64,000 nucleotides of DNA from Botryllus schlosseri (lineage: Eukaryota): the NCBI GenBank assembly GCA_051294905.1, contig CM119373.1, positions 37,572,001 to 37,636,000 of the forward strand, in the 5' to 3' direction. This document shows, piece after piece, positions 4,125-38,675 of this stretch (within the stretch, counting starts at the first letter, position 1; each line of letters begins with the position of its first letter). Under the pieces are notes generated by a model that was given only the letters and a program-made list of their open reading frames with translations, ran no database searches and was not told the origin of the DNA. The position numbers and the translations under genes were made by a program.

Positions 4125-5195
4125 CTATTTATACAAATCCGAGACCCAAGAATTAAATTTAGACGGATAACCCAACCATTTTACAAGATATTGCGTTTTC
4201 TTTCCTTTCCTGCGAGTAGACAGGATTTTTTCGATATTGTAAATATTATTATTTTTAGTTATTGGTTGTAACTCTTCACGCTGAAAGCGACCGTCTATAA
4301 CTTCACCATGGTAGTCTTTCAATTGATAAGTAGGAGGGTCACCTTTACGACATTGAGATACGAAAAAGATTTCTTCGGTCCAACTCGCCAAGGCACTTTT
4401 TACAAAATTACCACGTGATTTCGAAATCCTGACGGGTGTACCTATAGCTAGTTTGGGTTTTTTAGGGGTCATGTCAACGTATAACCTATGGAAAATTTGT
4501 TCTTGATTCGAATAATTAACATCCGCTGGAGGACACCCTATAGCAACGTGAAAAGTAGTGTTATACCCCCGGCATATCTCAGACAGGACACTGACATAAT
4601 TCAAAGTCTTATTATGCGTGAAATAACGGTATAACACTTGCTTCAGAGTACGAATAACACGCTCGCATATCGATGCTTTCAGTTCACTATTTGTATGAAA
4701 ATGTCGCACATTGTTCTCTTTTAAGAAAGTCTGAAACGCACGATTAGTAAACTCAGAACCTTGATCACTTTGAATAACATGAGGTATACGATTCTTAAAT
4801 ATTTCCTTGAATCCGCGAATAATACCTTGCGAGGTTTTGTTTTTGAGTGGATACAGATATAAAAATCGACTGAAACAATCGATCGTCACCAACACATATT
4901 CAAAATTATCGTTTTCTTTTGAAAGATTTTGCATATGCATGAGATCGGTTTGATACTGAACACCGAGACCGGACGTAATCACTCTAGGTCTCTTAAATTT
5001 CTTTCGATAGGGAAAATGTTTTGTGTACGCATCCTTGCTCGAAAGAAACTCCTTGACTTTGGCTCTATTCCGCCCTCTAGAGAATACGTATGCACCGCGG
5101 TAACTACCAGGTAGCCCTGGTGTGAAATACTTAGTATGGCTCCCATCCGTATCGTCTCGGGGTCTTGGGTGTACGACCACTTTTCGTCTTGGCAT
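4125..5195 (-). CDS. int: Retroviral-like DDE integrase (c-integrase) with C-terminal chromodomain, 356 aa
   Basis: QYQTDL (D), QSDQGSEF (D), ICERVIRTLK (E); chromodomain YNIEKIL...YLVKWLGYPSKFNSWV. Confidence 0.95.
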   Translation of the reverse strand: MPRRKVVVHPRPRDDTDGSHTKYFTPGLPGSYRGAYVFSRGRNRAKVKEFLSSKDAYTKHFPYRKKFKRPRVITSGLGVQYQTDLMHMQNLSKENDNFEYVLVTIDCFSRFLYLYPLKNKTSQGIIRGFKEIFKNRIPHVIQSDQGSEFTNRAFQTFLKENNVRHFHTNSELKASICERVIRTLKQVLYRYFTHNKTLNYVSVLSEICRGYNTTFHVAIGCPPADVNYSNQEQIFHRLYVDMTPKKPKLAIGTPVRISKSRGNFVKSALASWTEEIFFVSQCRKGDPPTYQLKDYHGEVIDGRFQREELQPITKNNNIYNIEKILSTRRKGKKTQYLVKWLGYPSKFNSWVSDLYK

Positions 5196-5895: not shown

Positions 5896-5908
5896 TTGGC
5901 TATTTATA
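5896..5908 (-). promoter_or_regulatory. TATA-box motif TATAAATAGCCAA upstream of PW-like gene
   Basis: ~26-38 nt upstream of ATG 5870; identical 13-mer at 13184-13196. Confidence 0.55.
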
Positions 5909-6515
5909 CCATCGGGCTATAAACCACCATGGTTTCACCAGGAAATATATTGGTCATAACTCGTCGATTTTCAGGTGCTTCTTGCGTGAGATCGAGGAAT
6001 AAATAACTATGAGGTTGTCTAGCAGCGTCACGATAAGCCTCTGTTAAAAATCTAGAGTTTGGGTACATTTGTCGACCAAGAAAACTGATCTGTTGTTGGT
6101 CGCGCGGATTCTTGAAAATCACCATATACGAGCTTGAAAGACTCAAGTCACGTGCTCCTTTACCCTTGTGATACAGGTTCTGCGTGATATAGCAAATTGA
6201 CTTGGCTGAATGATGAGAAAATCTTGTAAAGTAGTCTGCAATTTTCGCGGTCTCAGTCATGAAATCATCCACTATAATCAAGGTATCTTCAGAGCAAACC
6301 TTCAACTCTTCTAAAATATCTAGACCGACGTGGAATTCTACATTATGCATCGTCTTGAAAACCTCCTGATAATTATTGTAACAATATACGACCCTGGATA
6401 CACTAGGTTTAATCATTGATGTCGCATGCCTAATCAGCTTTGCAACAAAAGTAGTCTTCCCACTTCTTGAAGGACCACTCACAATACACGCGAATGGGTG
6501 AATCAATTCCATCAT
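5904..6515 (-). CDS. ATPase: A32-like FtsK-HerA DNA packaging ATPase, 203 aa
   Basis: Walker A GPSRSGKT, Walker B LIIVDD, ITQNLY, YLFLD motifs. Confidence 0.95.
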   Translation of the reverse strand: MMELIHPFACIVSGPSRSGKTTFVAKLIRHATSMIKPSVSRVVYCYNNYQEVFKTMHNVEFHVGLDILEELKVCSEDTLIIVDDFMTETAKIADYFTRFSHHSAKSICYITQNLYHKGKGARDLSLSSSYMVIFKNPRDQQQISFLGRQMYPNSRFLTEAYRDAARQPHSYLFLDLTQEAPENRRVMTNIFPGETMVVYSPMV

Positions 6516-6557: not shown

Positions 6558-7026
6558 TCAACAAGGTTGGGAATATCCACTGTTGTAGTCATCTTGTTCT
6601 AGTGGAATATATAAACCCGGTAGAGTTCGATTTAACAATTTTCCCCGGGTTATGAAATCTTCATCTGTCCCTCGTAATTTCGTCAGTGGAAGTTGTAGTG
6701 TTACAAACGCTTTATTAAGGTTGTCAAGCAGCTGATCCCAATCTGCAAAATGAAAAATCGCATAAGAGGATTCATAACACGAGAGGATTCATAGCGCTTT
6801 AAAATCTAACAGTGTTACTATAACAACTATAGATCTCACCTTTTAAACACTCTTTTAAATCTTTATGTTGTGTCGATACGCGTTGTTCGTATAATTCATG
6901 CGATATCTCTCGATTCAAATACAGCTCCACGAAGTGTACATGATCGCGGCGTTGTACAAGTGTCTTTTCGTGTAACCGAGTCAGACCTGCTTGTTCCAGA
7001 AAAGCTATTATGTAATCACTAGCCAT
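6558..7026 (-). CDS. Two-exon hypothetical protein, 123 aa (exon1 7026-6840, exon2 6742-6558)
   Basis: Acceptor tttttacag|ATG at 7026; donor AAG|GTGAGA at 6840/6839; acceptor ttttgcag| at 6743; phases match and give an open frame ending ...YSQPC*; exon2 not in the ORF track. Confidence 0.7.
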
Positions 7027-7178
7027 CTGTAAAAACAAGACACAGATATCAGAAAATATTGTTACTAAAATGTTTCCATTACAAGTTGACATTTCGAAAA
7101 CACCCACAGATTGTAAACAAAGTTTCACCTAAAACTATCAGTGTTCACCGCAGATTATGTTCACAATGACCAAGAGAA

Positions 7179-7673: not shown

Positions 7674-7786
7674 CTGGAAAACAAATGACACATCAACACA
7701 TAAAAAATACAACTAAATCATAATAATAGCAGACACACAGATAAAATACAATAGCACACAAAATATACAATTACGTCACAATGGTA

Positions 7787-10700
7787 TTACACATTCAATG
7801 GCAGGGTTGACACACCATCCTCGAGCACTCGGCGTTTGGCATAGAAATAGGAAAATGTTTTACGCTGTTGTTTGTACGTATAGACACCCCTATCTCTGCA
7901 CCGAAACCCCTTGTTCACTCCCCCGACAGATTGCCTAGATGTCAAGACACCCAGAAAAGTTTCGAAATCGACTGGGTTGGATTTCTGGAGGCCTTTGGAA
8001 GCTAATTTTTTCTTTGGTCCATCACAAAAGTAATTTTTGGATTGGAGCCCACAGAAGGATGTACCACCTTCGTACTCCACTTTCATCAAACCCGGTTGAC
8101 GAAGGTAATACGCATACGTGTCTTTACAACACTGTCTCGATCGGTCAAAAGAAACCGGATCAGCCAAAAACTCAGTTCGGTGCTCGTCACAAAAATAGCG
8201 TGGAAACCAGTTCTCGTATTCCACATAAAATTCATCTCTTTTCTCGGGGATAAGGATATCGTCGAATGAGGCTGAGTGCGAAAGATAGAGAGAGTCCGTG
8301 TCCATCATTAATAGCATGAAGCACTCGTCACGGAAATATTTACACAAGCAGTCATAAAAAAACGAGAGCATCTTAAGCTTAGCATTGTTATAAACCCAGA
8401 ACCCCACTTGAATACAGTTACCCCACTTGATCGTTTTAGGTCGCTTCGTTACTTCAAATAGATCAGCGTTCAATTCATCATATTTCACAAAAAAGCGATC
8501 CTCAACATTGCCATCCAATTCACTTTTATCACAGTAGGTGGTTCGTTTGAATTTACGTGGATTCATCAAGACCCGGCCATAGCTGCTATTTCCGGCTAAT
8601 TTTTGCGTCAGGGCAATGATCTCTAGGCTAGGGTCACGATCTCCAGCACGTCGACAATCCGAGACATTTTTCGCGAAGGTGTCAAAACATGTCTTTTTGG
8701 TGAATTCGACCGCCTCATGAATTTTGGATATAATCAATCCGTGTTCAACATACCACTTGATCAAGTCGGAGGTCAACAAGATTTTCTTACCCCAGTATGA
8801 AGCAACTAACATGCGCGTGGGTTTGGTGAGTAATTTGCGATCAATGGCGAACTGTTTCATTTGACCTGACAAATGCTCGCGAGACACCATTGTATTTTTG
8901 AATATCGGACATAGTTCAACAAACTTCCTTTGCAAATGTTTTGGTGTAAAAATATCGACTGATAAACATCCAAAGAATGTACCGGTCATTACCATCTCCA
9001 TCAATTTATGCGCGGTGACAGACTTGGTTCGAGTCAATTGCGATTGAATTCCATCAAGATATCGCACAATATCAGGATTTTCCTGTTTCTCCGTGCGCCA
9101 GTCGCATTCCCATTTACATATGACTTGATAATTGAGGCTTTTGTAATAATCATGAACACGTTTAGTTCGTTCTCGACGTTCCAAGTCATCACAACCAAAT
9201 CTGCATTGATGCGCGTGAAAATGACACCCAAGAAAAGACAAGATTACCCCTTGACCAGCCGAATTACGATAGAACCCATCAGCGGGGTAATTACGGGCTC
9301 CTACGCGGATTTCAGGTCCATTAAAAGCATGGTGGACATGTACATTGTGAATATATGAATACCAGTTTAGCCATTGAGCTGCTGTCTCCCCCCATTTCGG
9401 TGCGGTCTTGACAGGTTTGAATTTAGTACACTCAGCATCGAGTGGTTGCCAATGTACCGGGAAACCAGTTGGACTAGGTTCACTCAAAGCAAAAAGGTAT
9501 AACGAATTGCTGTCCAGCCCTGTTACATGTTGGGTGATCTGAGCGTTTTCCTTATGAAAAAATTCTTTGATTCGAGTTTCACCCTGTTTTTGATATCGAT
9601 GGAAAATGACCGACGGCCCACCCACTAAATTGTCTCTGAATAGTGAAACCAGGTCTTGGTGTTTATCATTGAACAAGGTGAAATCGCGTGGGATGCTATT
9701 GAAAAGATGCCTCGATACAACCCCGGGTAGGGAGACAGCTTCTTTGAATATATCCACACTGAATTGACTTTTGAAAGATTGAAATTGTTTTTCTAACCCC
9801 TCAATGAAGTAGTGAGTATCGATTGCGTTGTACCATTTGAGATAATCACGTAAGGTTGTCATTTTGTTATCGTTCCAAACCTTCAAACAGTTTTCATATT
9901 CAGCTGTGGATATATTACGATCTTCTAGTGAGCTGTAAAAGTCGCTGTGGCTAGGAAGACTCGGATAATCTAACTTTTCCAAACTAGTCAGAAACTCGTA
10001 CGGAAAATGACCTTTAGCGGCGCTACATTTGAAGGCTTTCAAATAAGCATCGTACGAGAACCCGGGTGCCAAGTAATTTACAATGTCCAAAAATTTAAGT
10101 CTGTTAGTTGTCAACGAGAGGAAGTTGTTACCTCGTTTCAATACATTCAGATTTTCATCAACGAGTAAACCCATCAAGTACTCTTTGAGACAGTTCAAGT
10201 CATACCGACCACCATTGAACGATAAAACAGGGATTTGTTTTAAATATCGCATAAACTCCTCTTGTAAACGTTCAAGAGGTATTTTTCTTTCGGAAGGATC
10301 GAGCGCTCTCATTTCGGTAATTTTAGTTTCGAGCATGTCCAAGTAGTGTTGATATTCCGTCAGTAACAATCTGAATGACTCACTTTGAATATCATGAAAA
10401 TGATCAACCATTTCCGCACACAAGTCATTTGGGTCACCGTTCGAGACAATTACATACGGCTCCAAGAACCCTTCCACATTAGAAGAGATGCTAACCGAAA
10501 TGGGAATATGTTTACACTCCCATGAAGTTTTGGAGGAATCTGGAATATCACACTTTTCAAACATGCTCTCTATGTCGAACGCGATACGGTATTTGAAATA
10601 ACGAAGCTGGTGAGGAACAAACACCCCTTCTAAATCAAGCTTTTCAAAGATGTTCAGAGGAGGTGTATACACGCCACCTGGAAACACTTCAACGACACCC

Positions 10701-11629
10701 GTTGTACATTTGTGTCTGGTCAATTCATACTGTTCGTTAAATAATCGTAGACAAACATCACATTTATAGGTCTCTATATACCGCCTCATGTCAGTAATGA
10801 GACAGAAGTGTGCATTTTCTAAATGTAGGTACACAGGTTTCCCTTCAAACGTACTACGTCGGAGAGCGCTAGCTTTACCCTCTGTCTTGGTGTACACGAT
10901 TATAGCAACATTAAACAAATCCTCGATATCGTCCAACATGTCAAGAGTTACACCAGATTCTACATTGATCCCACAAACCGAAGTGAATTGTTGAGCCAAT
11001 GCTTTGGCATCTTTGCCCAGTGAGTGGGCGATGCAACGAAAAGCGCACAGATTGTCCTTGTACAGATGTCGATTGGGTCGACTTAACATTGTCAAGATGC
11101 ATTTCGATTTTGTAAGCCATGTCGGTAGCTTAATACCAGCACAACCAATCAGTAAATGACCCGTAGGGTATACATAAAACTGGACATTGGTCAGACAGAC
11201 TGGCAGTGACTTTGTATCTACTCGAGAGTTTTGTAACAAATCAAGTGCGGTTTCCAAGCGAATAGATTCAACAAATTCATCGAATTCAGGTAGTGTTGAA
11301 ATTAGCGCCGGTGTTTCTAATACACTATCGATGTTTGCCGAAGCATGAAAATACCGAAATCTCAGAGTCTCAGTGTGATATAAAATGAAGGCATGTGCGT
11401 AGTTCACTTTAAAGGTATGTGACTCGGAGAAAAATATCGCTTGGATATCGCGGTAAACATCCGTTAGCTCACGATCGATAACTCGAATATTATACACATG
11501 ACTGGTCTTTTTCACTACATACGATTTTATCGCTTGCCAGTTCTGATTTACAACTTCTTGGCGTTCGTCACCGATCTCTGGTGGTGCATTCTCTTCTTCG
11601 CGAACACGATTCCGTCTGCGTCGACTCAT
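7787..11629 (-). CDS. pPolB: Protein-primed family B DNA polymerase, ~1280 aa from ATG 11629
   Basis: Exo I AFDIES, Exo II FNGGRYD, Exo III YNAIDT, motif A DSNSLY, motif B KLAGNSSYG, motif C MDTDS; no internal stops; acceptor ttttacag| abuts ATG. Confidence 0.97.
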   Translation of the reverse strand: MSRRRRNRVREEENAPPEIGDERQEVVNQNWQAIKSYVVKKTSHVYNIRVIDRELTDVYRDIQAIFFSESHTFKVNYAHAFILYHTETLRFRYFHASANIDSVLETPALISTLPEFDEFVESIRLETALDLLQNSRVDTKSLPVCLTNVQFYVYPTGHLLIGCAGIKLPTWLTKSKCILTMLSRPNRHLYKDNLCAFRCIAHSLGKDAKALAQQFTSVCGINVESGVTLDMLDDIEDLFNVAIIVYTKTEGKASALRRSTFEGKPVYLHLENAHFCLITDMRRYIETYKCDVCLRLFNEQYELTRHKCTTGVVEVFPGGVYTPPLNIFEKLDLEGVFVPHQLRYFKYRIAFDIESMFEKCDIPDSSKTSWECKHIPISVSISSNVEGFLEPYVIVSNGDPNDLCAEMVDHFHDIQSESFRLLLTEYQHYLDMLETKITEMRALDPSERKIPLERLQEEFMRYLKQIPVLSFNGGRYDLNCLKEYLMGLLVDENLNVLKRGNNFLSLTTNRLKFLDIVNYLAPGFSYDAYLKAFKCSAAKGHFPYEFLTSLEKLDYPSLPSHSDFYSSLEDRNISTAEYENCLKVWNDNKMTTLRDYLKWYNAIDTHYFIEGLEKQFQSFKSQFSVDIFKEAVSLPGVVSRHLFNSIPRDFTLFNDKHQDLVSLFRDNLVGGPSVIFHRYQKQGETRIKEFFHKENAQITQHVTGLDSNSLYLFALSEPSPTGFPVHWQPLDAECTKFKPVKTAPKWGETAAQWLNWYSYIHNVHVHHAFNGPEIRVGARNYPADGFYRNSAGQGVILSFLGCHFHAHQCRFGCDDLERRERTKRVHDYYKSLNYQVICKWECDWRTEKQENPDIVRYLDGIQSQLTRTKSVTAHKLMEMVMTGTFFGCLSVDIFTPKHLQRKFVELCPIFKNTMVSREHLSGQMKQFAIDRKLLTKPTRMLVASYWGKKILLTSDLIKWYVEHGLIISKIHEAVEFTKKTCFDTFAKNVSDCRRAGDRDPSLEIIALTQKLAGNSSYGRVLMNPRKFKRTTYCDKSELDGNVEDRFFVKYDELNADLFEVTKRPKTIKWGNCIQVGFWVYNNAKLKMLSFFYDCLCKYFRDECFMLLMMDTDSLYLSHSASFDDILIPEKRDEFYVEYENWFPRYFCDEHRTEFLADPVSFDRSRQCCKDTYAYYLRQPGLMKVEYEGGTSFCGLQSKNYFCDGPKKKLASKGLQKSNPVDFETFLGVLTSRQSVGGVNKGFRCRDRGVYTYKQQRKTFSYFYAKRRVLEDGVSTLPLNV

Positions 11630-12150
11630 CTGTAAAATTAATAACATGCGGTCAAATTCAGCACTTGGGGAACATTAAACTAGTCTTACTTACATTCTAG
11701 TTTCTTCGCCGGTGTCTTCCTGGATTCTTTATGCTTAATAAAACAAGCAACACATCATACTATGTTCGCTAACATAGTGTTGTAGCAGATAACTTACCAG
11801 TAGACTCGTGTTTTCAACTTGAGTTTGCTCCGTCTGTCAACAACATAGAGAATTACATCATGTTCACTAGTTCTGAACAGCAATAACTTACCTATGCAAT
11901 TCTTTACTTCAATTTCGATGCTTGTTTTGGCTGTAGGATAAACGAATAACATATTATATTCATAAATCAAAGTAGTCATACCGAATAACTTACTAATTAA
12001 CTCCTTATCCAGCGATCCGCGTTCGAATATACCCAGACAGTCAGTCACGTTGTTCGCTGCTCGACACCCGGAGAGAAAGACCTAAACCGCTGATTCGAGA
12101 TTACAAGAGCGCCAGCACCACTAGTGGTTGCGCTTTTAGAATCTATTGTT
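11630..12150 (-). other. Putative multipartite non-coding 5' leader of pPolB (introns 11931-11993, 11834-11891, 11734-11797, 11630-11693; micro-exons 11892-11930, 11798-11833, 11694-11733)
   Basis: Four GTAAGT donors each paired with a pyrimidine-rich (Y/T)AG acceptor 58-64 nt away; exons lack ATG, every intron contains ATG. Confidence 0.7.
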
Positions 12151-12225
12151 TATTTATGGCTCTAATGTAAAATCTGAAACGGAAAACAGAAATTGAGAAT
12201 AGACACTCACAACAATGAAAATTAT

Positions 12226-13107
12226 TCAGCACAAATTATACTTCAATTTCGTTCTAATTTCTAGAAGTCGATGCAAGTACTCATTGGTTGCGGTATTTAA
12301 TTCAGGTTGAATCTCATCAAGACTCCAACGCTGACCCTTGACAGTGAGCAATCGTTTGATGTCAGCCATGAGCTTTGCGACAGTCAAATTTTTTTTCTCC
12401 GTCAACGAATCAACATAACATAGTATTGAACCTAAATGCGGCTTAACAACGTCAATAGTCTGAAGGTAGGTGACCATCTTGTCAACTGTGTATTGACATA
12501 ACTTTTCTTCCTGCTTCTTTTTTCCCTTCACGTCGTCGCGAAAATCATCGTCACTCGCGCTTTTAGATTTCACAGGTTTCTTACCAACCTTCTGTCTGGG
12601 TTCGGTACGATTCAAATTTTTCGATTTCCCATTACGAAGCTGTTTAGCCGGTGGTATGCCCACCGTTGTCGATATGGTTCTTTTTCGAGTTGGCTTGCCG
12701 GTTGATACAGATTTAGGAGTATCAGTCACCGATAGCGACTCCGCGGGGCGCGGTATCGTCATCCCAGAAGTCGACGGTTTCTCGGGATTCGGTAATTCGT
12801 TGCTAACGGCTGTCTCGTCGGTCGGTACACACGGTATCGTCACCAAGTTCGTGAGATCGTTAATCGCGCTTTCTCTAGCTAGTTGACCCGACTTCAACCA
12901 CGCCTGGCGCGCTATATCTGTATAGTTTGACTGCATTTCGATCGTTGCCGTAAGGTCGCGTTCTGCGGATTCTACTCTTAAATCCGACGTCATCAGATCA
13001 CCAGGATTAATCGCATCAAAGATATCCGCGTTCTCTTCAAATTGTGATTCGAATGCATTTGGTTCATAACCAAATTTATCAAGATTATCTATCTGAACCT
13101 CGGTCAT
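12226..13107 (-). CDS. Hypothetical Maverick protein, 293 aa (acidic N-terminus, S/T/P and basic linker, helical C-terminus)
   Basis: Long intact ORF with upstream TATAAATAGCCAA; no recognisable domain. Confidence 0.7.
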   Translation of the reverse strand: MTEVQIDNLDKFGYEPNAFESQFEENADIFDAINPGDLMTSDLRVESAERDLTATIEMQSNYTDIARQAWLKSGQLARESAINDLTNLVTIPCVPTDETAVSNELPNPEKPSTSGMTIPRPAESLSVTDTPKSVSTGKPTRKRTISTTVGIPPAKQLRNGKSKNLNRTEPRQKVGKKPVKSKSASDDDFRDDVKGKKKQEEKLCQYTVDKMVTYLQTIDVVKPHLGSILCYVDSLTEKKNLTVAKLMADIKRLLTVKGQRWSLDEIQPELNTATNEYLHRLLEIRTKLKYNLC

Positions 13108-13183
13108 TGTACAATAATTAATCTAACTGCTCCAACCAACGTTTATGTCTGCGACAGCGAAGTATAACAATCAGATCGCGGTG

Positions 13184-13196
13184 TTGGCTATTTATA
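13184..13196 (-). promoter_or_regulatory. TATA-box motif TATAAATAGCCAA upstream of 293-aa ORF
   Basis: Identical 13-mer to 5896-5908. Confidence 0.55.
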
Positions 13197-13201
13197 GATT
13201 T

Positions 13202-13289
13202 AATTCGATAGTAGCACGCGGCCGGATGGAAAATAATTCGGCGCGCAGGTCATTCGAAATATAGGCCGCACGCACACTGCGTAATCCTC
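13202..13289 (+). repeat. ~88-bp direct repeat, copy 1
   Basis: cgatagtagcac...cgcaggtcattcgaaatatagg.cgcacgcac...tgcgtaa.tcctc also at 15013-15098. Confidence 0.85.
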
Positions 13290-13570
13290 AGAACCGATCG
13301 CGTTTCCTAATTTCAGAACCGGACGTATTTAGTGTGTCACACAGGTCAAAACGCGGTCGCGGACATCTGTTTTTTCAAAATCGCACAGCGCACTGCGCTT
13401 TAGTGAATTTCCTGTTTAGCGAAACGGGCGATTTTATTGCGCCACACATGTCAAACGCACCCGCCAACATCTGTTTTTTCGAAATCTGAGCGGTGTATTT
13501 CACCATTTTAACACATTGTGGTGTCATTCTCATGGTTTACTTTTTCAGTTGATTGTTACATATACTCGTT

Positions 13571-13924
13571 ATGGCAACTAGCGCGATTATTGAGAATTAC
13601 CTTCTCTACTATCATAACTTGACAACCCCCATATTGAGCGAAACGGAAAAATTCATCCACGGAGTACTAGATTTCTATGTACATGGAGAAAACGTGAGCC
13701 GTGTTCGAAAGTGCGATTTTACCGCATTGGTTAACTCGATTCGATCATACGGCATCGACTGGAATGGGGTTTTTAGTGTCATAAGCATTGCGGCGATGAA
13801 AAGTGACATACGCACCCTAGCGGTGTACAGAGATTTAGCAACAGACATCTTGAATACTCACTACAGTACATTGATAAGTGACTGGGTACGAAGAAAATTC
13901 ATTCGTGTCGTTTGTCGCTTGTGA
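13571..13924 (+). CDS. Candidate Bcl-2-fold protein, 117 aa
   Basis: F.ALVNS.RSYGIDW.GVFSVIS aligns without gaps to BH1 ([23 protein letters not shown] of Bcl-xL); ISDWV resembles BH2; ATG 13571 follows acceptor tttttcag at 13548. Confidence 0.45.
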   Translation: MATSAIIENYLLYYHNLTTPILSETEKFIHGVLDFYVHGENVSRVRKCDFTALVNSIRSYGIDWNGVFSVISIAAMKSDIRTLAVYRDLATDILNTHYSTLISDWVRRKFIRVVCRL

Positions 13925-14086
13925 ACGGTATCATTTCTTACAGAACTCCTGTAAAGTTTATTTCAATCCAAGTCTATTCACGCGGGTCATCAGGATTATA
14001 CAAAGACTGTTAACTCACTCAATACCACGCACCTAATTCTATAAATATCGACGGATTTGTTGATGACTCTCACTTTATCAAACGAT

Positions 14087-14698
14087 ATGACATCGAACAG
14101 CGTCAGCAGTATGCAAGTCGGAGCAGTTTCAAATTTTCACGTCGGTGTCAAATTCGTCTCATCGCCCAAAAGAGGTGGCGTTAGTCAATATCTCAAAGGT
14201 ATATTCATCGACGGCAATAACGAAGAGATATCTTTCACGTGTTTCAATCGTGAATTGTTCGGGATCATTGAGAAAGCATTCTCCAAACGAAAAAAACTCA
14301 TGGTCAAATCCGGTTGGGTCCAAATTGACAAGTTTACTGGAAAACCTGCTGTATTACTGGGACGGGCTTCGTCAGTAACTCTGCATGGAAAATCGAGACA
14401 TACGACTGAAGAATACCCATTATTGACCTGTGAATCAGTATACGGAAATAAAGATGAATACGTCTCGATCGCCGCTACTTGTGTTTCTGGAGAGGAGAAG
14501 ACGGTCAATTCTGATGCCGGAAAGGAGTTGAAATTATACAGTTTTACATTGAAGGATGATACTGGTGAGGTGGTTTTGGACCAATGGAACAAAGCCTCGC
14601 TCGTACCCGGGAAGAAATATCAACTCACTCGTGTTAAAAACTGTGTCGGCAGCTTGAAAATCGATTCGTTAACTGGACTTGTTGAATTGAAAGAATAG
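14087..14698 (+). CDS. Tandem OB-fold, RPA/SSB-like single-stranded DNA-binding protein, ~203 aa
   Basis: C-half KTVNSDAGKELKLYSFTLKDDTGEVVLDQW...GKKYQL is an RPA-type OB signature; N-half has a similar FIDGNNEEISFTCF strand pattern; TATAAATA at 14040-14047. Confidence 0.6.
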   Translation: MTSNSVSSMQVGAVSNFHVGVKFVSSPKRGGVSQYLKGIFIDGNNEEISFTCFNRELFGIIEKAFSKRKKLMVKSGWVQIDKFTGKPAVLLGRASSVTLHGKSRHTTEEYPLLTCESVYGNKDEYVSIAATCVSGEEKTVNSDAGKELKLYSFTLKDDTGEVVLDQWNKASLVPGKKYQLTRVKNCVGSLKIDSLTGLVELKE

Positions 14699-15180: not shown

Positions 15181-15487
15181 GAATCACGACCGCACCCATA
15201 AGAACACATGGCGAATCACCACAGAACCCGTAAGAATACACGACAGGCGAATCGCCGCCACCGCCTATAGCAAAAAAGGCGAGTCACGACCACGAGTTTT
15301 CACGGCGAATCACCGCCACCGCCTATAGCAAAAAAGGCGAGTCACGACCGCACCCATAAGAACACATGGCGAATCGCGGCCCAGAGGAGGGTCTAAAAAG
15401 GCGAATCGCCACCCCGGGTTTCCAGGCGAATCGCCACCCCACCCATTAGAAACCTATGGCGCATCACGACCGATCTACATAACTACT
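15181..15487. repeat. Maverick terminal region: subterminal tandem repeats and terminal ACTACT
   Basis: cacgaccgcacccataagaacacatggcgaatc x2, gccaccgcctatagcaaaaaaggcgagtcacgacc x2, many ggcgaatc cores; ends ACTACT at 15487. Confidence 0.75.
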
Positions 15488-16399: not shown

Positions 16400-19300
16400 A
16401 TAGTTTGAAGTGTTCTAGTTTATTTCATGTCCAAGCCTATTGCAATGGCTGCAAAGCTGATCGAATAAATGTTCTCAGGAATTTGAAATACGTGATACGC
16501 TACATTACGTATTTCTTTAAATGTCTGTTGAATACATCAGGGTTATCAGTATTGGCCTTCAGTGAAACAATATCACACAACGCTAATCTGCAACAGATAG
16601 AATATTGATCATTTCTTATAAGGTACTGGTGTCCAGACGTAGTCTTTCTAGTTTATTTCACGCTCAAGCATTACAACGGCTGTAAAGCCATCTAAATAAC
16701 TCTTCTGACGGCGCATCAAGCTAAATTTCATGTTTTGGGGAATGTAGGTTATATATATATTTGCTGATTTTTCACTTAAAGTGCTAGTTATGTACGTAAC
16801 CGCCTCAAAAACGTGACGTGACACCGGTCAGGCCCTAGTCAAGCTCCGCGTAAAATATCGAATGTCGGGTATTGAAGACAGATATAAAAAGTCCGAAACG
16901 GTCTGAAATCACGCGCTGCAAGCATCGCTGGTCACAAAATGCGTACCGCGCCCGGAAAACGCAGACTTACCGGTCCGCGAAAACCAGAAAACAAATAGGC
17001 TCGACCGATTGTCCTCGGCTTTTACAAAATCGGGTAGAAAAAAACAGGCGGGCCACGCATTAAAAATAACCAAAACGTCGCAAACACAGTGATGATTCAG
17101 CCGGTGGGTGCGTGGGGTCGTCATGCATCATGTTGTTGCATAACCCGGGTGGGTGAGACTGGCAGACAATTACCAAAGAATTCCAACTTCTATATACATT
17201 CGGAAAACGACAAAAATCATCCTTTTTAACTCATACGTAATGCAGCAAAGCCCGTGATGTCAAGTATGGGCAGAAGAACGCATATTTTCACCCGAGAGAT
17301 GGTAAGCGGGCGGAAAAAGGGGGGCGAAATTCGCAGCAGCCCCCCGATTTCAAATCGGCAGCAGCAGCTGAGAATTGTTATAACATCACAGCAGGTTATC
17401 ATCATCGAGCAGAGATTTTCGGGAAAAGCGCAAGGTCGTAGAAATCAAACACAGATTTTCATGTCGAAACAAAAATCGCGTCATATCCACGATGTCTCGG
17501 GGCCGGCCGTTGTTACAAAAAACGGTCTATTGTCGGGTAATATTTGCAGCTTTATGCCAAAAAAACATGGCAACAAAATAGTTTAGGGTTTTCACAACAG
17601 AAACAGTCGATATACGATCATTTTTCACAAAATCCAGGTCGACATTTTCAAACTTTTCCACATTTCTCCCGATTACGAAAAGACCCCAAAATATCTTCCT
17701 GGGGGAGTGGGGGCCTTTTTTGGAAGGCACCATCAATTTGTCATTGCTACGTCGCAAATTATTTTGCGGGAGACAAAAGTCATTGTTTCAACCAACAATG
17801 GTGGGTTCAGGGGTGCTTCTTTTTAGACATGGTCGTGGTCTTGTCATTGTTACGTGAAAAGTTTGCTTGTCTGAGACACAAAAGCGATTGTTTTTTTGAC
17901 AATAGCGTCATTTACAGGTTCAAGTGGGCAACTTTCATTGTATGGAGATTGTTACCTTTTTTCAAGGTGTGATCCTTGTCTGCTGCAGAAATTTTTTTTG
18001 TTCAAACACAGCATTTGTATTAACGTGGGGCAAAGGTGGGTGCCCCGACTACATCTCGTTAAGAGGTATCGTGACAGTTTCCCCTTTCCTGGGCCTGGTC
18101 TCGGCCAACGTCAGTTTCTTGATCTCGACCTCGTCAGACTTTGATTTGTTGGCAGCAGGCGATGTTGGAGAGGGGGGCCGGGGAGGTTCCGGTTGAGCGG
18201 GCAAATTCAAACTCTCGTCGGCCATCGGCTGTTGCTCGGAGACCTCGAACTTTCCGAAAGCCTTGTTCGATTGGCTGCTCCTGTGGGCGGCATTCTTGCT
18301 CGCTTTGGATCGACGGCCGGGTCTCGGCCGGTTCACCTCGTCCTCGGTCTGGGTGAATATCAGTAATATGTAAAGGGAATAAAGTTTTACTAAAAAAAAA
18401 TTTAGTTGCTCGACTCTGTTTCGTTCCTTAGTGCGCAGGTTTGACGGGGCAGCCAGTAGGGTAACCATGATAGTTATTGCCAGCCATTATAGCGGACGCG
18501 CTAAATCAAATAAGCGACGATAGCGATATCAGATGTCAATATGACCTATTTCGCATACAAATGATTCCCGCTAATTGGCAGTACGCGGCATCGATGATAC
18601 GAATTAGTGAATTGGCATTTCCACAGGACGGGATTTCTAGTTTTAAATGTGAGTCTCCCTGGCTACACACCTAGGGTTTTAATACCGACAACGAGCTGCT
18701 AAATATCAACCTGGGGCCTACGATCCTCGATATGGTTGCGCCCGATAGAGTCAGTCCAGCAATGAAGTCTATACAATATACATAGAACATAGGCACACAC
18801 AAACACTGTCCTATTTTCGCTCCAATTAAAGAGACAATCACGAAACTAACTCGTGAATTATTTTAAATCCTTGAATATTTAGTTGTATTAAGTTAATTGG
18901 CCTTCATTAGATACTAATTAGTGCTAATTACAGGTTGAAAGCTGCATGAGTAACTCGGCGCCTATGACTCTGGACATGATTAACCCAAAACAAATACGGA
19001 AATTATCCATACAGCAAGAAAAACACAATACTTGATCACCCTGCACTCTGGCATTTCCAGGATATGAAGCAAAATTATGACTCAGACCCACCATTTTCCT
19101 CGGGTCTCGTGCTTCTTTTGGCTTCCCGTCTTGAAAGAAATATTGCACAGACGACAAAAGGCTGAGTCGACCCTCGGACTGGGACTCCTAAAACAAAACA
19201 CATGCAGATTCATCCTCGACCCCGAATTATTACCCCGTTTTCACCCACCTTCACTTTCTCCATGGGTATAAACTGGCTTTTCTTGGGAGCCTCCCCTGTC

Positions 19301-19888
19301 TTGTGTGCACCACGAACCAGTGATGAGACCGGGGGTACTTTCTGGGGGCCGACACGCCGACAGTGGGTGAACTGACTTTGAGTTGTTGAGCCCCGGGTTG
19401 GAATTCTGCCCCGAAAGATGGTTGGGGTGCTGGAATAGAAACGGGGTCATTTTAGGGTTCTCAGAGTCTAGACTCAAATAGATATTTCTTTAAATACGGA
19501 AAATGACTCAAAACATCTCCTTACATACAGAAAGGGGTCAGACTCACCCTGGTTCGGCTGCTGCATCCGTTGGGGTCGAAACGGGGGCCTGTTCGGGCCA
19601 TCTGCTGTTGCTGAGTCATCGGCTGGTAAGACTAGGGCACGAAGTGTTGTTGGGGCATCTGCATACTGGGATTCTGCTTGCCCATCATGTCCAGCGGAGG
19701 CCTGACTAGCCCCATCTGTTGTTGCGGGGCCATCTTGTTGCTGCCCCACTGCATCATGTTTCTCGGCCCCATGTTGGGGTTGAAGGACATCTGATTGTCG
19801 GAGGTTCTCGATGGGAGGAACCCGCTCGATTGCGGGCCTCGTAACGTTTGGTTCATATCGCCTGGAATAGCAGTAAAGACGGAATTAA
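16400..19888. repeat. Segmental duplication copy 1 (paralogous to 28385-32946)
   Basis: Near-colinear high similarity over ~3.5 kb, e.g. matching ORF-track entries 16872/28900, 17254/28900, 18049/30078. Confidence 0.95.
18049..19861 (-). pseudogene. Gln/Pro-rich gene copy C (last four exons only)
   Basis: Same exons as 30078-32919; premature TAG at 19632 (CAG in copy A) and 1-nt deletion in G-run near 19345; homology ends at ~19888. Confidence 0.75.
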
Positions 19889-28384: not shown

Positions 28385-31300
28385 CAGTTCAATGTGTCCT
28401 AGTTTATTACCATGTCCAGGCCTAGCAATGGCTGTAAAGCTGATCAAATAAATGTTCTAAGGATTTTGAAATACGCGATACGTTACATTCCGTATTTCCC
28501 TAAATATCTGTTGAATACATCAGGGTTATCAGTATTGGCCTTCAGTGAAACAATATCAGACAACGATAATCTGCAACTGATAGAATATTGATCATTTCTT
28601 ATAAGGTACAGGTGTCCAGATGTAGTCTTTCTAGTATATTTCACGCATAAGCATTACAACGGCTGTAAAGCCATCTAAACTCTTCCGAAGGCGCATCAAG
28701 CTAAATTTCATGTTTTTGGGAATGTAGGTTAAGGGGGGAGGACCCCCTGAACTCATCAAATTTTTCAATATTCAATTTCAAAATATATTTGCCGATTTAC
28801 CGTTCAAAGTGCTAGTTATCCATGTTACCGCCTCAAAAACATGACGTGACACCGGTCGGGCCCTAGTCAAGCTCCGCGTAAAATATCGAACGCCGGGTAT
28901 TGAAGACAGATATAAAAAGTCCGAAACGGTCTGAAATCACGCGCCGCAAGCATCGCTGGTCACAAAATGCGTACCGCGCCCGGAAAACGCAGACTTTCCG
29001 GTCCGCGAAAACCAGAAAACAAATAGGTTCGACCGATTGTCCTCGGCTTTTACAAAATCGGGTAGAAAAAACAGGCGGGCCTCGCATTAAAAATAACCAA
29101 AACGTCGCAAACACAGTGATGATTCAGCCGGTGGGTGCGTGGGGTCGTCATGCATCATGTTGTTGCATAACCCGGGTGGGTGAGACTGGCAGACAATTAC
29201 CAAAGAATTCCAACTTCTATTTACATTCGGAAAACGACAAAAATCATTCTTTTCAACTCATACGTAATGCAGCAAAGCCCGTGATGTCAAGTATGGGCAG
29301 AAGAACGCATATTTTCACCGGAGAGATGGTAAGCGGGCGGAAAAAGGGGGGCGAAATTCGCAGCAGCCCCCCGATTTCAAATTGGCAGCAGCAGCTGAGA
29401 ATTGTTATAACATCACAGCAGGTTATCATCATCGAGCAGAGATTTTCGGGAAAAGCGCAAGGTCGTAGAAATCAAACACAGATTTTCATGTCGAAACAAA
29501 AATCGCGTCATATCCACGATGTCTCGGGGCCGGCCGTTGTTACAAAAAACGGTCTATTGTCGGGTAATATTTGCAGCTTTATGCCAAAAAAACATGGCAA
29601 CAAAATATTTTAGGGTTTTCACAACAGAAACAGTCGATATACGATCATTTTTCACAAAATCCAGGTCGACATTTTCAAACTTTTCAACATTTCTCCCGAT
29701 TACGAAAAGACCCCAAAATATCTTCCTGGGGGAGTGGGGGCCTTTTTTGGAAGGCACAATCATTATGTCATTGCTACGTCGCAAATTATTTTGCGGGAGA
29801 CAAAAGTCATTGTTTCAACACGACAATGGTGGGTTCAGGGGTGCCTCTTTTTAGACGAGGTCGTGGTCTTGTCATTGTTACGTGAAAAGTTTGCTTGTCT
29901 GAGACACAAAAGCGATTGTTTTTTGACAATAGCGTCATTTACTGGGTCAAGTGGGGCACCTTTCACTGTATGGAGATTGTTACCTTTTTTCAAGGTGTGA
30001 TCATAGTCTGGCCACATGGAGTTTTGTTGTTCAAACACAGCATTTGTATTAACGTGGGGCAAAGGTGGGTGCCCCGACTACGTCTCGTTAAGAGGTATCG
30101 TGACAGTTTCTCCTTTCCTGGGCCTGGTCTCGGCCAACGTCAGTTTCTTGATCTCGACCTCGTCAGACTTTGATTTGTTGGCAGCAGGCGATGTTGGAGA
30201 GGGGGGCTGGGGAGGTTCCGGTTGAGCGGGCAAATTCAAACTATTGTCGGCCATCGGCTGTTGCTCGAAGACCTCGAACTTTCCGAAAGCATTGTTCGAT
30301 TGGCTGCTCCTGTGAGCGGCATTCTTGCTCGCTTTGGATCGACGGCCGGGTCTCGGCCGGTTCACCTCGTCCTCGGTCTGGGTGAATATCAGTAATATGT
30401 AAAGGGAATAAAGTTTTACTAAAAAAATTTTAGTTGCTCGACTCTGTTTCGTTCCTTAGTGCGTAGGTTTGATGGGGCAGCCAGTGGGGTCACCATGATA
30501 ATTATTGCCAGCCATTATGTACTCATGGTATGCATATGCGCAGATCGCGTGTATGTGTATCATGAGTCGGTGTATATGCCGCAAAAACATCAAGGACAAA
30601 AATAAACTACGTCCTTCCTTTCCTTTCATTATAGCGGACGCGCTAAATCAAATAAGCGACGATAGCGATATCAGATGTCAATATGACCCATTTTGCGTAC
30701 AAATGATTCCCGCTAATTGGCAGTACGCGGCATCGATAATACGAATTAGTGAACTGGCATTTCCAAAGGACGGGATTTCTAGTTTTAAACGTGAATCTTC
30801 CTGGCTACACACCTAGGGTTTTAATACGGACAACGAGCTGGTTAATATCAGCCCGGGGCCTACGGTCCTCGATATGGTTGCGCCCGATAGATTCCGTCCA
30901 GCAATGAAGTCTATACATAGAACATAGGCACACACTAACACTGTCCTATTTTCGCTCCAATTAAATAGACTAGCACAAAACCAACTCGAGAATTATTATA
31001 AATCCTCGAGTATTTGGTTGTATCAAGTTAATTGGCCTGAATTGGATACTAATTAGTGCTAATTACTGGTTGAAAGCTGCATAAGTAACTCGGCGCCTCT
31101 GACTCTGGACATGATTAACACAAAGCAAATACGGTAATTATCCATGAGGATTTCGGATTGGTGAATTCTACTCTTTGCTCCATAAACCAAGAAAAACACA
31201 AAACTTTACCACCCTGCACTCTGGCATTTCCAGGATATGCAGCAAAATTACGACTCAAACCCACCATTTTCCTGGGGTCTCGCGCGTCTTTCGGCTTCCC

Positions 31301-32946
31301 GTCTTGAAAGAAAGATTGCACAGACGACAAGAGGCTGAGTCGACCCTCGGTCTGGGACTCCTGAAACAAAACACGTGCAGATTCATCCTCGACCCCGAAT
31401 CATCACCCCGTTTTCACCCACCTTCACTTTCTCCATGGGTATAAACTGGCTTTTCTTGGGAGCCTCCCCTGTCTTGTGTGTGCCACGAACCAGCGATGGG
31501 ACCGGGGGCACTTTCTGGGGGGCCGACACGCCGACAGTCGGTGAACGGCCTTTGAGTTGTTGAGCGCCGGGTTGGAATTCGGGTGCTGAAATGGAAACGA
31601 GGTCATTTGAGGGTTCTTAGAGTCTAGACCAGTGGTTCCCAACCTTTTTCGACTAATCGCCTTTTCAAACTCCACACCGATCATCGCCCCCCAAATATTG
31701 GGAACCGAAAAATGATAATACATACTGAAATCACCAGCTAGTTGACTAAGAAAAAGGTCAACTTGTCGGCTCGACCTCGAAATCACACTTTTCCAGCTCG
31801 GGCGGACCCGTGGGTGTAATGACTTCGTTAAGTAATGACATTTTGTGGCCTGTCTGCTATGTTAAAAGATATTCAAATCGCCCATGCGTACTAAACTAAA
31901 AGATGCACACGATTTCAGATTGGTATTTCTGCACTGGCAATTAATTTTTCTCTGCGAGATGGCAATTTTTGTGGGATTCTGATTGCCAGGACAGGAACAT
32001 TTGGCGCCAACCAATTAGGCGCCTATGGGCAATTAAATATATATGTATATCGTATATATATCGAAGTCGGTCAGCCTAAAGGCAGTCCTTTTCCGCCAAG
32101 GTTTTCTCGTTTTGGCACTCTATTCGGAGTCGCATGTTACATGGCATGAAACTTCATATGTCTTGGTGCGTCATGGTGTGATAGTGGCTGACGCCGAGAT
32201 GCCCATTTCTATAACTCATGCGTATTATTTCTTGAAGGAAGGGTATCCAATAAGCAAGAAATAAGCGACTAAGAAATGGCGCGCATCGCGAAATTTATTT
32301 GAAAAATCTGCCCAAATTTTCAAAATATTACTCTATAAATAATGTTAATTCACGAAAAACATATGAGCTCCCCATCCCAATTGTGGGTTTGGGTGTGGCA
32401 GTTACGGTCATCAACGGCAATCGCCCCCTTCGTCCATTTTCGCCCCCTTGGCTATTTTCGCCCCCTGGACCGACAAAACGCCCCCTGGGGGGCGATATCG
32501 CCCACGTTGGGAACCACTGGTCTAGACTCAAATAGATATTTCCTTAAATACGGAAAATGACTCTACACATCTCCTCACATACAGAAATGGGTCAGAAGAC
32601 TCACCCTGGTTCGGCTGCTGCATCCGTTGGGGTCGAAACGGGGGCCTGTTCGGGGCCATCTGCTGTTGCTGGGTCATCGGCTGGTAAGACTGGGGCACGA
32701 AGCGTTGTTGGGGCATCTGCATTCTGGGATTCTGCTTGCCCATCATGTCCAGCGGGGGCCTGACCAGCCCCATCTGTTGTTGCGGGGCCATCTTGTTACT
32801 GCCCCACTGCATCATGTTTCTCGGCCCCATGTTGGGGTTGAACGACATCTGATTGTCGGGGGTTCTCGATGGGAGGAACCCGCTTGATTGCGGGCCTCTT
32901 AACGTTTGGTTCATATCGCCTGGAATAGCAGTAAAGACTGAATTAA
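28385..32946. repeat. Segmental duplication copy 2 (contains extra 890-bp hAT MITE)
   Basis: Paralogous to 16400-19888. Confidence 0.95.
31630..32519. mobile_element. hAT (Charlie/Buster-type) MITE, 890 bp
   Basis: TIRs CAGTGGTTCCCAAC / GTTGGGAACCACTG; 8-bp TSD GTCTAGAC (31622-31629, 32520-32527); empty site with single GTCTAGAC at 19466-19473. Confidence 0.95.
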
Positions 32947-36275: not shown

Positions 36276-38675
36276 TGTTGCGGTCGCTGAACTGCCTATG
36301 TGATTCTGTGTAAGCTGTCTTCCCTTGAACTTACAGCGCCGCAAAGTCCTATAAGTTTCCCGATGTAAATATACGCGATCTTGAAGTACGGTAGAAAAGT
36401 ATATTGCTTGAAGTTCCAATTGATCGAATTTCCTTATATCCAAATTATAATACGACACAGTAGTAGCACGAATAAGATATTGTCCCAATAAGATCGGTAA
36501 ATACAGTGCGGGAACGTCCGGTGGGCCAATTACTATTGACAAACTGTACCCTATCACAGCTATATCCAGAATATTCCCTTAGACCAGACCAGGAAGTATC
36601 GTCAAGCATACGCCATCTAGCGAATACAAGTATGGCTCCTAAATTATTGAACCCCCTAAGATTAACATGAAATGCCCACAGTAACAATCCCCACCAAAAA
36701 AGTTATAAAATGACAAAGAACTTTTTTGCAAATTAAGTTAAACATCAGTCCATTAGTGGCTTCTCGTCGCTGGAATCCTCGGTAACTTCTTATGTAGAGA
36801 GAAGCACGACCAATTTGTGGCTAGGTCGTTCCAAAAACTGCACATCGTTGATTCTTCTTCCGTACTCATCAACCCATCACCGTCTAAAAATGGATCCGGT
36901 TTGTACAATGGACTACCTTTCTTCACAACATAACCGTTCAACTTCGATGAATAATCAAGACGTTCCATTTCTTCATGAAATAATTCACTTCGAAAGTTTT
37001 TCAAGATGATCATTTCTGCCTTTGACAACCTTTCAACTGCGAGAGAACTGTTTATCTTTGCTGATAGCACAGCTGCAGTCATTTCCATCCTTGGAATTAA
37101 AACTTGCTTCACTGGTGCAGCTATCGATTTTGACATAATGAGATTGCAATGAGCCTTTCCTTTGAGTAATTCCCTTCCAATTTGAACCTTATCCAAATTT
37201 GCATCAACATGATGGCTCACATTGGCCCCGTCGTTACTAGGAGCTCCATCCATCACATTTTCAATGTTATCCAGTACACTACTCGGTGTCGACTTCCGCC
37301 CTCTATCAATTAGCCTTTGCAAGTCTCGTTGATTCTGAGCCGACAGGTCCTTCATCTTCTGCTCGTTGTCTCGTTGATTCTGAGCCGATAGGTCCTTCAT
37401 CTTCTGCTCGTTGTCCCGTTTCATTTGTTCAACCAATTTCGCAGTCTCGCTATCAAGAGAGTTCAAATCTTCTAGTACAGCGAACCTATTCCGTCTCGGA
37501 GCAGGCTGAGTCGACTTGGCCTTCAATTGGCCGTTGTATTCATCCAAATAATCCTTTACGTCGTAGCCAGTCTCTGCTACATGATCTTGTATATCTTTGA
37601 ACGAACGAGAAAATGCTATCAATTCCTCTTGCTCAAGTCGAGGCTCAAGGTCTCTCCAAAAACCTTGCAATTCCCCAAACATTCTTTGCATCTTCAAATA
37701 AGCTTTGGAAACCTCATCCTGATTGTCCCCAGACTCTATCAGGGAATTCAAACCTTTGCAGTCTCGCAATAACCATTTGACACGGAAGTCAAACTCTTGC
37801 TTCATGTTTTCAAATACTGCGGAGGTTCCTCTAGTTCTCCTGCCCGTGCCCGATATCACAGTGTGACCATGCTTGTAATCCTCGGCCATGATTCTATAAG
37901 GATCCGAATCTACGTTATCTTCACCCCCCAAAGTAGAATTCCTCGAATTAACACCATTGTGGCCAACACCAGAAGCCTTTCCAGACTTCTTCCTTTTACC
38001 AGGAGTCATTATGAAAACTAGAGTACACCAACTTACTGTTTCCTCCAACAGAAGTGTGTCCTTTCTCCAATATCAGTATAAATGAAGCAAGTCCTATTAC
38101 CGGCACCAATCCACACAATATGGAATTGTCCTTTACTTATGTACCGATAGTCGTCCTGTGTTACTGTTCCGCTTCCTGGCGTTGAATTGTATATTCCAAT
38201 ACAATACTCCACCAAGGGACCTTTGTTGTGTTTACTCCACGACCGGACCTTTAGCTGTATTTACTGTTGCGGTCGCTGAACTGCCTATGTGATTCTGTGT
38301 AAGCTGTCTTCCCTTGAACTTACAGCGCCGCAAAGTCCTATAAGTTTCCCGATGTAAATATACGCGATCTTGAAGTACGGTAGAAAAGTATATTGCTTGA
38401 AGTTCCAATTGATCGAATTTCCTTATATCCAAATTATAATACGACACAGTAGTAGCACGAATAAGATATTGTCCCAATAAGATCGGTAAATACAGTGCGG
38501 GAACGTCCGGTGGGCCAATTACTATTGACAAACTGTACCCTATCACAGCTATATCCAGAATATTCCCTTAGACCAGACCAGGAAGTATCGTCAAGCATAC
38601 GCCATCTAGCGAATACAAGTATGGCTCCTAAATTATTGAACCCCCTAAGATTAACATGAAATGCCCACAGTAACA
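36276..38675 (-). mobile_element. Internally deleted BEL/Pao LTR retrotransposon, 2400 bp
   Basis: 411-bp TG..CA LTRs (36276-36686, 38265-38675) with no difference found by eye; 5-bp TSD TGGGG; purine tract GGTGGGGA before 3' LTR on minus strand. Confidence 0.95.
36753..38048 (-). CDS. Mosaic gag-like / RNase H / integrase-region remnant ORF, 431 aa
   Basis: Helical gag-like N-terminus; AHCNLIMSKS.AAPVKQVLIPRMEMTAAVL (BEL RNase H region); LSKAEMIIL...KGSPLYKPDPFLDGDG (RNase H-integrase linker); FLERPSHKLVVLL* BEL C-terminal motif in another frame. Confidence 0.75.
   Translation of the reverse strand: MEETVSWCTLVFIMTPGKRKKSGKASGVGHNGVNSRNSTLGGEDNVDSDPYRIMAEDYKHGHTVISGTGRRTRGTSAVFENMKQEFDFRVKWLLRDCKGLNSLIESGDNQDEVSKAYLKMQRMFGELQGFWRDLEPRLEQEELIAFSRSFKDIQDHVAETGYDVKDYLDEYNGQLKAKSTQPAPRRNRFAVLEDLNSLDSETAKLVEQMKRDNEQKMKDLSAQNQRDNEQKMKDLSAQNQRDLQRLIDRGRKSTPSSVLDNIENVMDGAPSNDGANVSHHVDANLDKVQIGRELLKGKAHCNLIMSKSIAAPVKQVLIPRMEMTAAVLSAKINSSLAVERLSKAEMIILKNFRSELFHEEMERLDYSSKLNGYVVKKGSPLYKPDPFLDGDGLMSTEEESTMCSFWNDLATNWSCFSLHKKLPRIPATRSH

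Follow-up and report, generated by a model that had tools for sequence, protein, structure and literature searches.

How is the protein-primed DNA polymerase gene (pPolB) of a Maverick/Polinton element expressed when four short introns lie directly ahead of its start codon? The question is raised by the minus strand of a 64,000-nucleotide window, which is the whole stretch of DNA that was analysed and to which all coordinates refer. The first-pass annotation had described this region as an AUG-free spliced leader in the style of the adenoviruses. As set out below, pPolB is probably one member of an operon-like unit that, to judge from its sequence features, would be split into single mRNAs by spliced-leader (SL) trans-splicing of the host.

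The window contains a Maverick/Polinton element that extends from approximately position 1370, where it is cut, to a terminal AGTAGT at 15487. Besides pPolB (7787-11629), the minus strand carries an ATPase-like ORF and an rve integrase. The polymerase is a protein-primed PolB (PF03175, E = 5e-7), the retroviral-like integrase is located at 4125-5195 (rve, E = 1e-15) together with a chromodomain, and a candidate packaging ATPase at 5904-6515 gives AAA_14 and RNA_helicase matches, both weak. The left end near 1370 is interrupted by other sequence, and a matching terminal repeat was not found in the 9 kb preceding the window. The reading frame that starts near 1603 is presumably capsid-like; at 950-1370 the element is cut within a capsid-like ORF and adjoins a stretch that by eye resembles a fibrinogen-domain exon. 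Homologues of pPolB number 32 at E<=1e-20; some are 42% identical, and the nearest named ones come from marine molluscs (31-34% identity). Searches for relatives outside the host genome gave 16 candidates among metagenome contigs, none of which was confirmed, and no locus among viral contigs. The host genome of 496 Mb contains adjacent cellulose-synthase and GH6 matches, an arrangement that we take to be a tunicate trait and to mark the host as tunicate-type. Other repeats in the window include two LTR elements of the Pao/BEL type whose long terminal repeats are identical (57407-63306, which encloses a 63-nt tandem array at 61416-61919, and 36276-38564), and a 3-4 kb repeat in two copies, 16442-19888 and 28425-32946, with 91-98% identity and about 12 kb apart.

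Four GTAAGT donors on the minus strand, at 11993, 11891, 11797 and 11693 (three of them GTAAGTTAT), are followed by acceptors ending at 11931, 11834, 11734 and 11630, respectively. They delimit introns of 63, 58, 64 and 64 nt and inner exons of 39, 36 and 40 nt, and the final acceptor AG directly adjoins the pPolB ATG at 11629. Every position and length that the first-pass annotation gave is right. It had also reported that the joined exons lack start codons and that no frame stays open into pPolB, and both statements hold: ATG is absent from 12173-11994, from the inner exons and from their joins, the four introns contain three, three, three and two, respectively, and a stop lies two codons ahead of the pPolB ATG once the leader is spliced. 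The hexamer GTAAGT occurs four times in 12173-11630, a region picked post hoc, against a shuffle mean of 0.285, and none of 5000 shuffles reached four; along the minus strand of the 14,118 nt of the element it is found only at the four leader donors. The leader exons contain no ATG where 3.7 would be expected (shuffles, P = 0.006), and the 249 bases of the introns contain 11 where 6.1 would be expected (shuffles, P = 0.009). The coordinates of the leader and of its neighbours are collected in Table 1.

Table 1. Features of the pPolB leader, the surrounding transcription unit and the right end of the element; ranges and fractions refer to the aligned copies described in the text.
Feature	Position	Strand	Basis or variation
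Terminal AGTAGT, right end of the Maverick within the window	15482..15487	-	sequence
TATA box (TATAAA), predicted early-unit promoter	13191..13196	-	present in almost every row of the 40-row alignment
ORF293, 293 aa, single exon, first ORF of the unit	12226..13107	-	reading frame
52-nt spacer, 52% T, ending in a predicted trans-splice acceptor	12174..12225	-	CAG 40/40, AATAAA 0/40
Leader exon 1, non-coding	11994..12173	-	start placed by the acceptor; spliced contig extends to 12153; ATG in 1/40 copies
Intron 1, 63 nt	11931..11993	-	joint in X3; 63 nt in 39/40 copies
84-codon frame through introns 1 and 2, no gene	11794..12048	-	GTG start, variable length
Leader exon 2, 39 nt	11892..11930	-	33, 34 or 39 nt among copies
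Intron 2, 58 nt	11834..11891	-	joint in X1; 57 to 66 nt among copies
Leader exon 3, 36 nt	11798..11833	-	35 to 43 nt among copies, in steps that are not multiples of three
Intron 3, 64 nt	11734..11797	-	joint in X1 and X3
Leader exon 4, 40 nt	11694..11733	-	31 to 40 nt among copies
Intron 4, 64 nt	11630..11693	-	joint in X1 and X3
pPolB, 1280 aa	7787..11629	-	PF03175
113-nt T-rich spacer, terminal acceptor adjoining the ATG at 7673	7674..7786	-	CAG-ATG 30/30, AATAAA 0/30
ORF164, 164 aa	7179..7673	-	reading frame
152-nt spacer, terminal acceptor adjoining the ATG at 7026	7027..7178	-	CAG-ATG 30/30, AATAAA 0/30
ORF75, 75 aa, last ORF of the unit	6799..7026	-	reading frame
Predicted poly(A) signal, first conserved AATAAA past the TATA box	6711..6716	-	within 6798-6600, 30/30

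Conservation of the leader was scored in the 40 best of 150 candidate copies, which are 87-100% identical and form 39 distinct rows. Comparison of copies had been suggested in the first-pass annotation as a check of whether splice ends and intron lengths are kept while intron interiors diverge, and this is the case. Donors read GT in 159 of 160 cases and acceptors AG in 160 of 160, and the introns measure 57-67 nt throughout, with exon lengths varying by non-multiples of three. Diversity amounts to 0.003 at GT/AG and 0.027 at donor positions +3 to +6; intron interiors reach 0.086, the inner exons 0.090 and the third codon positions at the start of pPolB 0.139. Polymorphism affects 1 of 16 GT/AG sites versus 102 of 213 other intron sites (P = 0.001). 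Exon 1 is given a natural start by a conserved acceptor at 12174, which reads CAG in all 40 copies. The joined leader contains an ATG in a single copy; the local substitution spectrum predicts about 8.6 exonic ATG gains, whereas one was seen (P = 0.002), the prediction being a rough count with kinship ignored. Of the 40 copies, the window copy alone has an ATG at 11647, within intron 4 and in frame with pPolB six codons ahead of 11629; neither this ATG nor the acceptor at 12174 had been noted in the first-pass annotation. A more diverged sample comprised 26 leader cassettes (76-93% identity) from 25 loci chosen by partial pPolB matches. All eight intron ends are intact in 23 of these cassettes, two lack intron 1 and one has an altered acceptor, and an inner exon contains an ATG in 7 of 26. 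Selection maintains the splice ends and removes ATG from the leader exons. The simplest reading is that the leader is a 5' UTR purged of ATG, the introns being free to retain theirs.

Micro-exons that encode part of a protein were considered and rejected because ATG is absent, an in-frame stop precedes the pPolB ATG in 39 of the 40 copies, and exon lengths shift by non-multiples of three. The 84-aa ORF listed for this region had been regarded as an artefact of reading through the introns, and this explanation is borne out by its GTG start and by a length that ranges from 10 to 104 codons across the 40 copies. An origin of the leader units by tandem duplication has weak support. Among six pairs each of exons and introns, intron 1 versus 3 was matched by 7 of 500 shuffles and intron 2 versus 3 by 13 of 500, and the exons gave no signal.

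A sister family has been identified in which the pPolB start is 63-66% identical and the leaders cannot be aligned by blastn. In all 14 copies the sister leader contains three introns, each 69-75 nt long, that are separated by inner exons of 36-46 nt, the final AG directly adjoins the ATG, and a counterpart of the upstream acceptor at 12174 is present. Exon 1 and one intron are homologous between the families (0 of 300 shuffles each, among 24 comparisons). Exon 1 contains an ATG in 13 of 14 sister copies, and in all 14 intron 2 is ATG-free and the last intron has an in-frame ATG three codons ahead of the start. The gene order matches, both downstream acceptor-ATG junctions are present in the three copies read, and ORF293 is 39% identical to its sister counterpart. 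The layout is shared with diverged sequence and is therefore old, having been kept during sequence turnover.

Splicing was examined by comparing 4 of 24 listed sequencing runs with positions 11000-13400. In contigs of two of these runs (X1 and X3, from two studies, both presumed and not recorded to be RNA), all four introns appear removed, which is the result that the first-pass annotation had anticipated from a junction check. Intron 2 is exactly missing from X1 contigs, and intron 3 is missing from contigs of both runs. Introns 3 and 4 are both removed in X1 and X3 contigs with exon 4 retained between them, and intron 1 is removed in an X3 contig with one substituted base at the join. Exon 4 in the spliced contigs has the 37-nt form that is present in 24 of the 40 copies, the window copy having 40 nt, and the splicing evidence therefore concerns the family and not the window copy. 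X1 covers 30 of 30 bins including the intron interiors, so this run contains unspliced RNA or DNA. In two further runs that are certain to be RNA (read at 6 and 13 in 100), 21 and 43 reads were found in both directions; five reads lie within intron 1, and no joint occurs in 11000-13400 among the reads listed. Expression seems to be low and splicing incomplete in bulk. The spliced contigs reach 12153 at most, short of the acceptor at 12174. A loose end at 12173, as SL addition might leave, was not present among the rows listed at this low depth. No joint of exon 4 to another acceptor was listed either, but the stretch 11000-13400 could not reveal such a joint.

The leader and pPolB belong to a series of minus-strand ORFs (ORF293, pPolB, ORF164 and ORF75) that follows a TATA box, counted with rows L006 and L030 misaligned in the 40-row alignment. 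The three smaller ORFs gave no match in a Pfam search. No conserved TATA occurs in any of the three spacers (1 of 30 and 0 of 30 copies in the two downstream ones). An AATAAA is located 20 nt into exon 1 in 20 of the 40 copies. Between 13175 and 12175 a simple U1-match scan found no conserved strong donor: no GT has 7 of 9 U1 matches in at least 10 of the 40 copies. The later ORFs (6515, 5870 and 1981) have TATA-like boxes instead and no abutting acceptor. A possible extra GT-AG intron of about 96 nt overlaps the end of ORF75 at 6743-6840 on the minus strand, its donor being altered in several copies. Two plus-strand ORFs of 117 and 211 aa at 13540-14698 point away from the early unit, with acceptor-like sites near 13549 and 13941. 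A Pfam search of both gave no match; by eye, the 211-aa protein has the look of an OB-fold single-strand binding protein.

From the domain order given by Krupovic 2024 (10.1101/2024.03.18.585575), pPolB is predicted to consist of a terminal protein (aa 1-162), a vOTU-like domain (Cys195, His274) and the polymerase. An insert at residues ~760-850 (window ~7790-9300, minus strand) has by eye the look of a Vsr-like nuclease, and inserts of this kind are described from marine pPolB2 (10.1101/2023.08.22.554363).

Rearranged copies of the gene follow the predicted domain boundary. In 18 of the 25 loci chosen for partial pPolB matches, an ORF stops exactly after Leu-Ile-Gly162, before the vOTU-like domain, and the split ORF is predicted from this position to be the terminal protein. 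Five of these ORFs, each preceded by a leader of its own, are 162 aa long; in 12 the ORF is a 235-aa fusion with the beginning of ORF293, and one measures 254 aa. Downstream of the split ORF lie the ORF164 acceptor, now followed by GTG in place of its ATG (17/17), a second four-intron leader and a pPolB that lacks about 82 residues of the split-off region. The recruitment of this acceptor together with a second leader indicates that acceptor and leader act as portable parts. The split subfamily consists of loci L003, L086-L089, L093-L096, L101, L102, L105, L106 and L108-L112; those fused to the first 73 codons of ORF293 are L086, L087, L089, L093-L096, L101, L102, L108, L111 and L112. Four other loci (L040 and L097-L099) contain a shortened pPolB alone within the stretch read, and L098 and L099 lack intron 1. 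The fusion junction is one base off a GT...AG pair, and a donor-like site is created there in 8 of the 10 loci read. Because this site lies upstream of the recruited acceptor, the fused variants were rejected as a clean trans-splicing test of unpaired acceptors. According to Krupovic 2024, the terminal protein is predicted to be cleaved from the vOTU domain, and the gene is split in adenovirids and in one coral polinton. A stand-alone terminal protein, here a predicted one, is shared with these systems, and here the split and fused forms coexist in one family.

These features are probably best accounted for by an SL-resolved operon. A single transcript starting from the TATA box at 13196 would run through ORF293, the leader, pPolB, ORF164 and ORF75 and end at the poly(A) signal at 6716. 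The SL of the host would be joined at the acceptors 12174, 7674 and 7027, and the SL-capped pPolB message would then undergo four cis-splicing events before being scanned as far as the ATG at 11629, with the ATGs of the introns tolerated and forming no gate. The reading is preferred because the host is of the tunicate type and the acceptor at 12174 has no conserved strong donor. In Ciona, unpaired acceptors receive the SL, which also resolves operons that lack intercistronic DNA (PMC1488885), the 5'-most gene of an operon is often single-exon (PMC2760879), and intron sizes peak at 60 bp (PMC4122922). The single-exon ORF293 at the head of the unit matches the 5'-most Ciona operon genes. An acceptor lacking an upstream partner donor, as in ascidian SL operons, is present at 12174. 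It is not strictly so at 7674 and 7027, since the leader donors lie upstream of both, and this counts against the SL reading. The genes are closely packed on the same strand, with no intervening promoter or poly(A) signal in the 52, 113 and 152 nt between them; the single shared poly(A) site is, however, equally predicted by a cis-spliced shared leader. In the host genome, a query of the Ciona SL plus donor gave one single-mismatch match, which is chance-like, and did not reveal the SL gene of the host. Further points against the SL reading are that no SL was seen in the stretch 11000-13400, that the certain RNA runs gave no listed joint, that most of the fused variants read have a donor-like site upstream of the recruited acceptor, and that half of the 40 copies have the AATAAA in exon 1.

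Why a 3.8-kb intronless ORF should have introns ahead of it is a matter of guesswork. They may make the ORF pass as a normal host message with respect to export, stability or escape from silencing. The host genome contains a DUF3715 match, presumably a TASOR-type domain, and pPolB has an A content of 29%. Escape from HUSH as the purpose of the introns was rejected and remains a guess: introns shield against HUSH in human cells, yet one of 0.13 kb gave no protection there (PMC8770142), and pPolB is not A-rich.

Among the alternatives, an adenovirus-style cis model survives best. The leader would be shared by splicing its donor at 11693 to 11630 (pPolB), 7674 (ORF164) or 7027 (ORF75), with one poly(A) site for all messages. 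Adenovirus late messages have a common three-exon non-coding leader (PMC7070027), and the model accounts for the three acceptors that abut an ATG, which are conserved in 40/40, 30/30 and 30/30 copies and also in the sister family, and for the one conserved AATAAA behind the last ORF. Under this model the acceptor at 12174 lacks a donor, and the split-gene copies duplicate the entire acceptor-plus-leader and not a single acceptor. The cis model is for these reasons doubtful, and the SL-resolved operon probably fits the locus better.

It is distinctly less likely that pPolB is driven by a promoter of its own near 12200-12150 and carries an ordinary intron-bearing 5' UTR, the other acceptors being incidental or separately promoted. 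The diversity of 12225-12151 is 0.018-0.046 versus 0.090 in the exons, a spliced contig begins at 12153, and a TATA box is unnecessary for most Ciona promoters according to PMC4691747. Such a promoter fails to explain the CAG at 12174, present in 40 of 40 copies, or its counterpart in 14 of 14 copies of the sister family. The same stretch is replaced by the ORF164 acceptor in 17 cassettes in which the leader is nonetheless retained, and roughly half of the copies have lost 4 nt of the A/T box at ~12155.

The least probable reading is an AUG gate, in which intronic ATGs are kept as traps and pPolB is made only once all four introns are removed: the excess of intronic ATGs given above (11 versus 6.1 expected), the presence of at least one in every intron of all 40 close copies and the purge of ATG from the exons favour it, but intronic ATG bases are polymorphic at 7 of 21 positions versus 102 of 213 other intron positions and are thus no better kept, an ATG-free intron occurs in 8 of 26 cassettes and as intron 2 of all 14 sister copies, the last intron has an in-frame ATG in the window copy and in the 14 sister copies, the recruited exon 1 contains one to three ATGs in 17 of 17, and retention of any one intron gives either upstream ORFs of 1-35 codons ending 28-95 nt before pPolB or an in-frame start. 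A strict gate is unlikely. The first-pass annotation had proposed a splice-dependent non-coding leader, and its description as spliced, multi-exon, AUG-free and non-coding stands; the dependence of translation on complete splicing is not supported, given intronic ATGs that are not conserved, the in-frame ATG in intron 4 and the exon 1 ATGs of the sister family.

The element shares pPolB, an rve integrase with chromodomain, an ATPase-like ORF and the AGTAGT end with the Maverick/Polinton group (polintoviruses, adintoviruses). Vertebrate Mavericks are described as intronless (PMC8097293). The coding frames of the present element are also intronless, but the pPolB leader contains three to four introns. 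The available portions of an adintovirus paper (PMC8502044) and of a nematode Polinton paper (10.1101/2023.08.22.554363) make no mention of a spliced Polinton gene. Introns in a UTR would escape such surveys because they examined ORFs. In the open-access literature, no paper was found on spliced or trans-spliced Maverick messages, nor on a virus-like element that uses host SL trans-splicing.

The unit resembles the SL operons of the ascidian Ciona intestinalis in its packed same-strand genes, donor-less acceptors, single-exon first gene and lack of intergenic poly(A) signals. The Ciona operons consist of host genes, whereas the present unit is located in a virus-like element and SL addition is predicted. 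Its stop-to-acceptor distances are 52, 113 and 152 nt, in contrast to the Ciona operons without intercistronic DNA.

With the adenovirus tripartite leader the present leader shares several non-coding 5' exons ahead of a coding exon. The introns of the adenovirus leader are kilobases long, and that leader drives selective translation by ribosome shunting; the introns here, unlike those, are about 60 nt. The tripartite leader heads late structural genes, whereas the present one heads the polymerase, and the late genes of the element have TATA-like boxes of their own. The leader works like a multi-exon leader but does not belong with the adenovirus tripartite leader. In adenovirus E2, the replication genes DBP, pTP and Pol are grouped under shared promoters (PMC7070027, PMC7851563). 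There is perhaps an even chance that the replication genes of this Maverick have been remodelled into an operon of the tunicate style, with a borrowed host SL, conserved 60-nt introns and portable cassettes that split the terminal protein from the polymerase, and that the element has in this way repeated, within one genome, the step toward the adenovirus layout.

Mavericks have been treated as intronless, and their mode of gene expression is hardly known. Splicing observed at four predicted sites, which is selected in more than 40 copies and common to a diverged sister family, indicates that expression of the polymerase is nuclear and depends on the spliceosome. Should the operon reading be true, a virus-like element exploits the SL trans-splicing of its host, its host range would be tied to the type of RNA processing, and junction and SL reads would be simple markers of Maverick activity.
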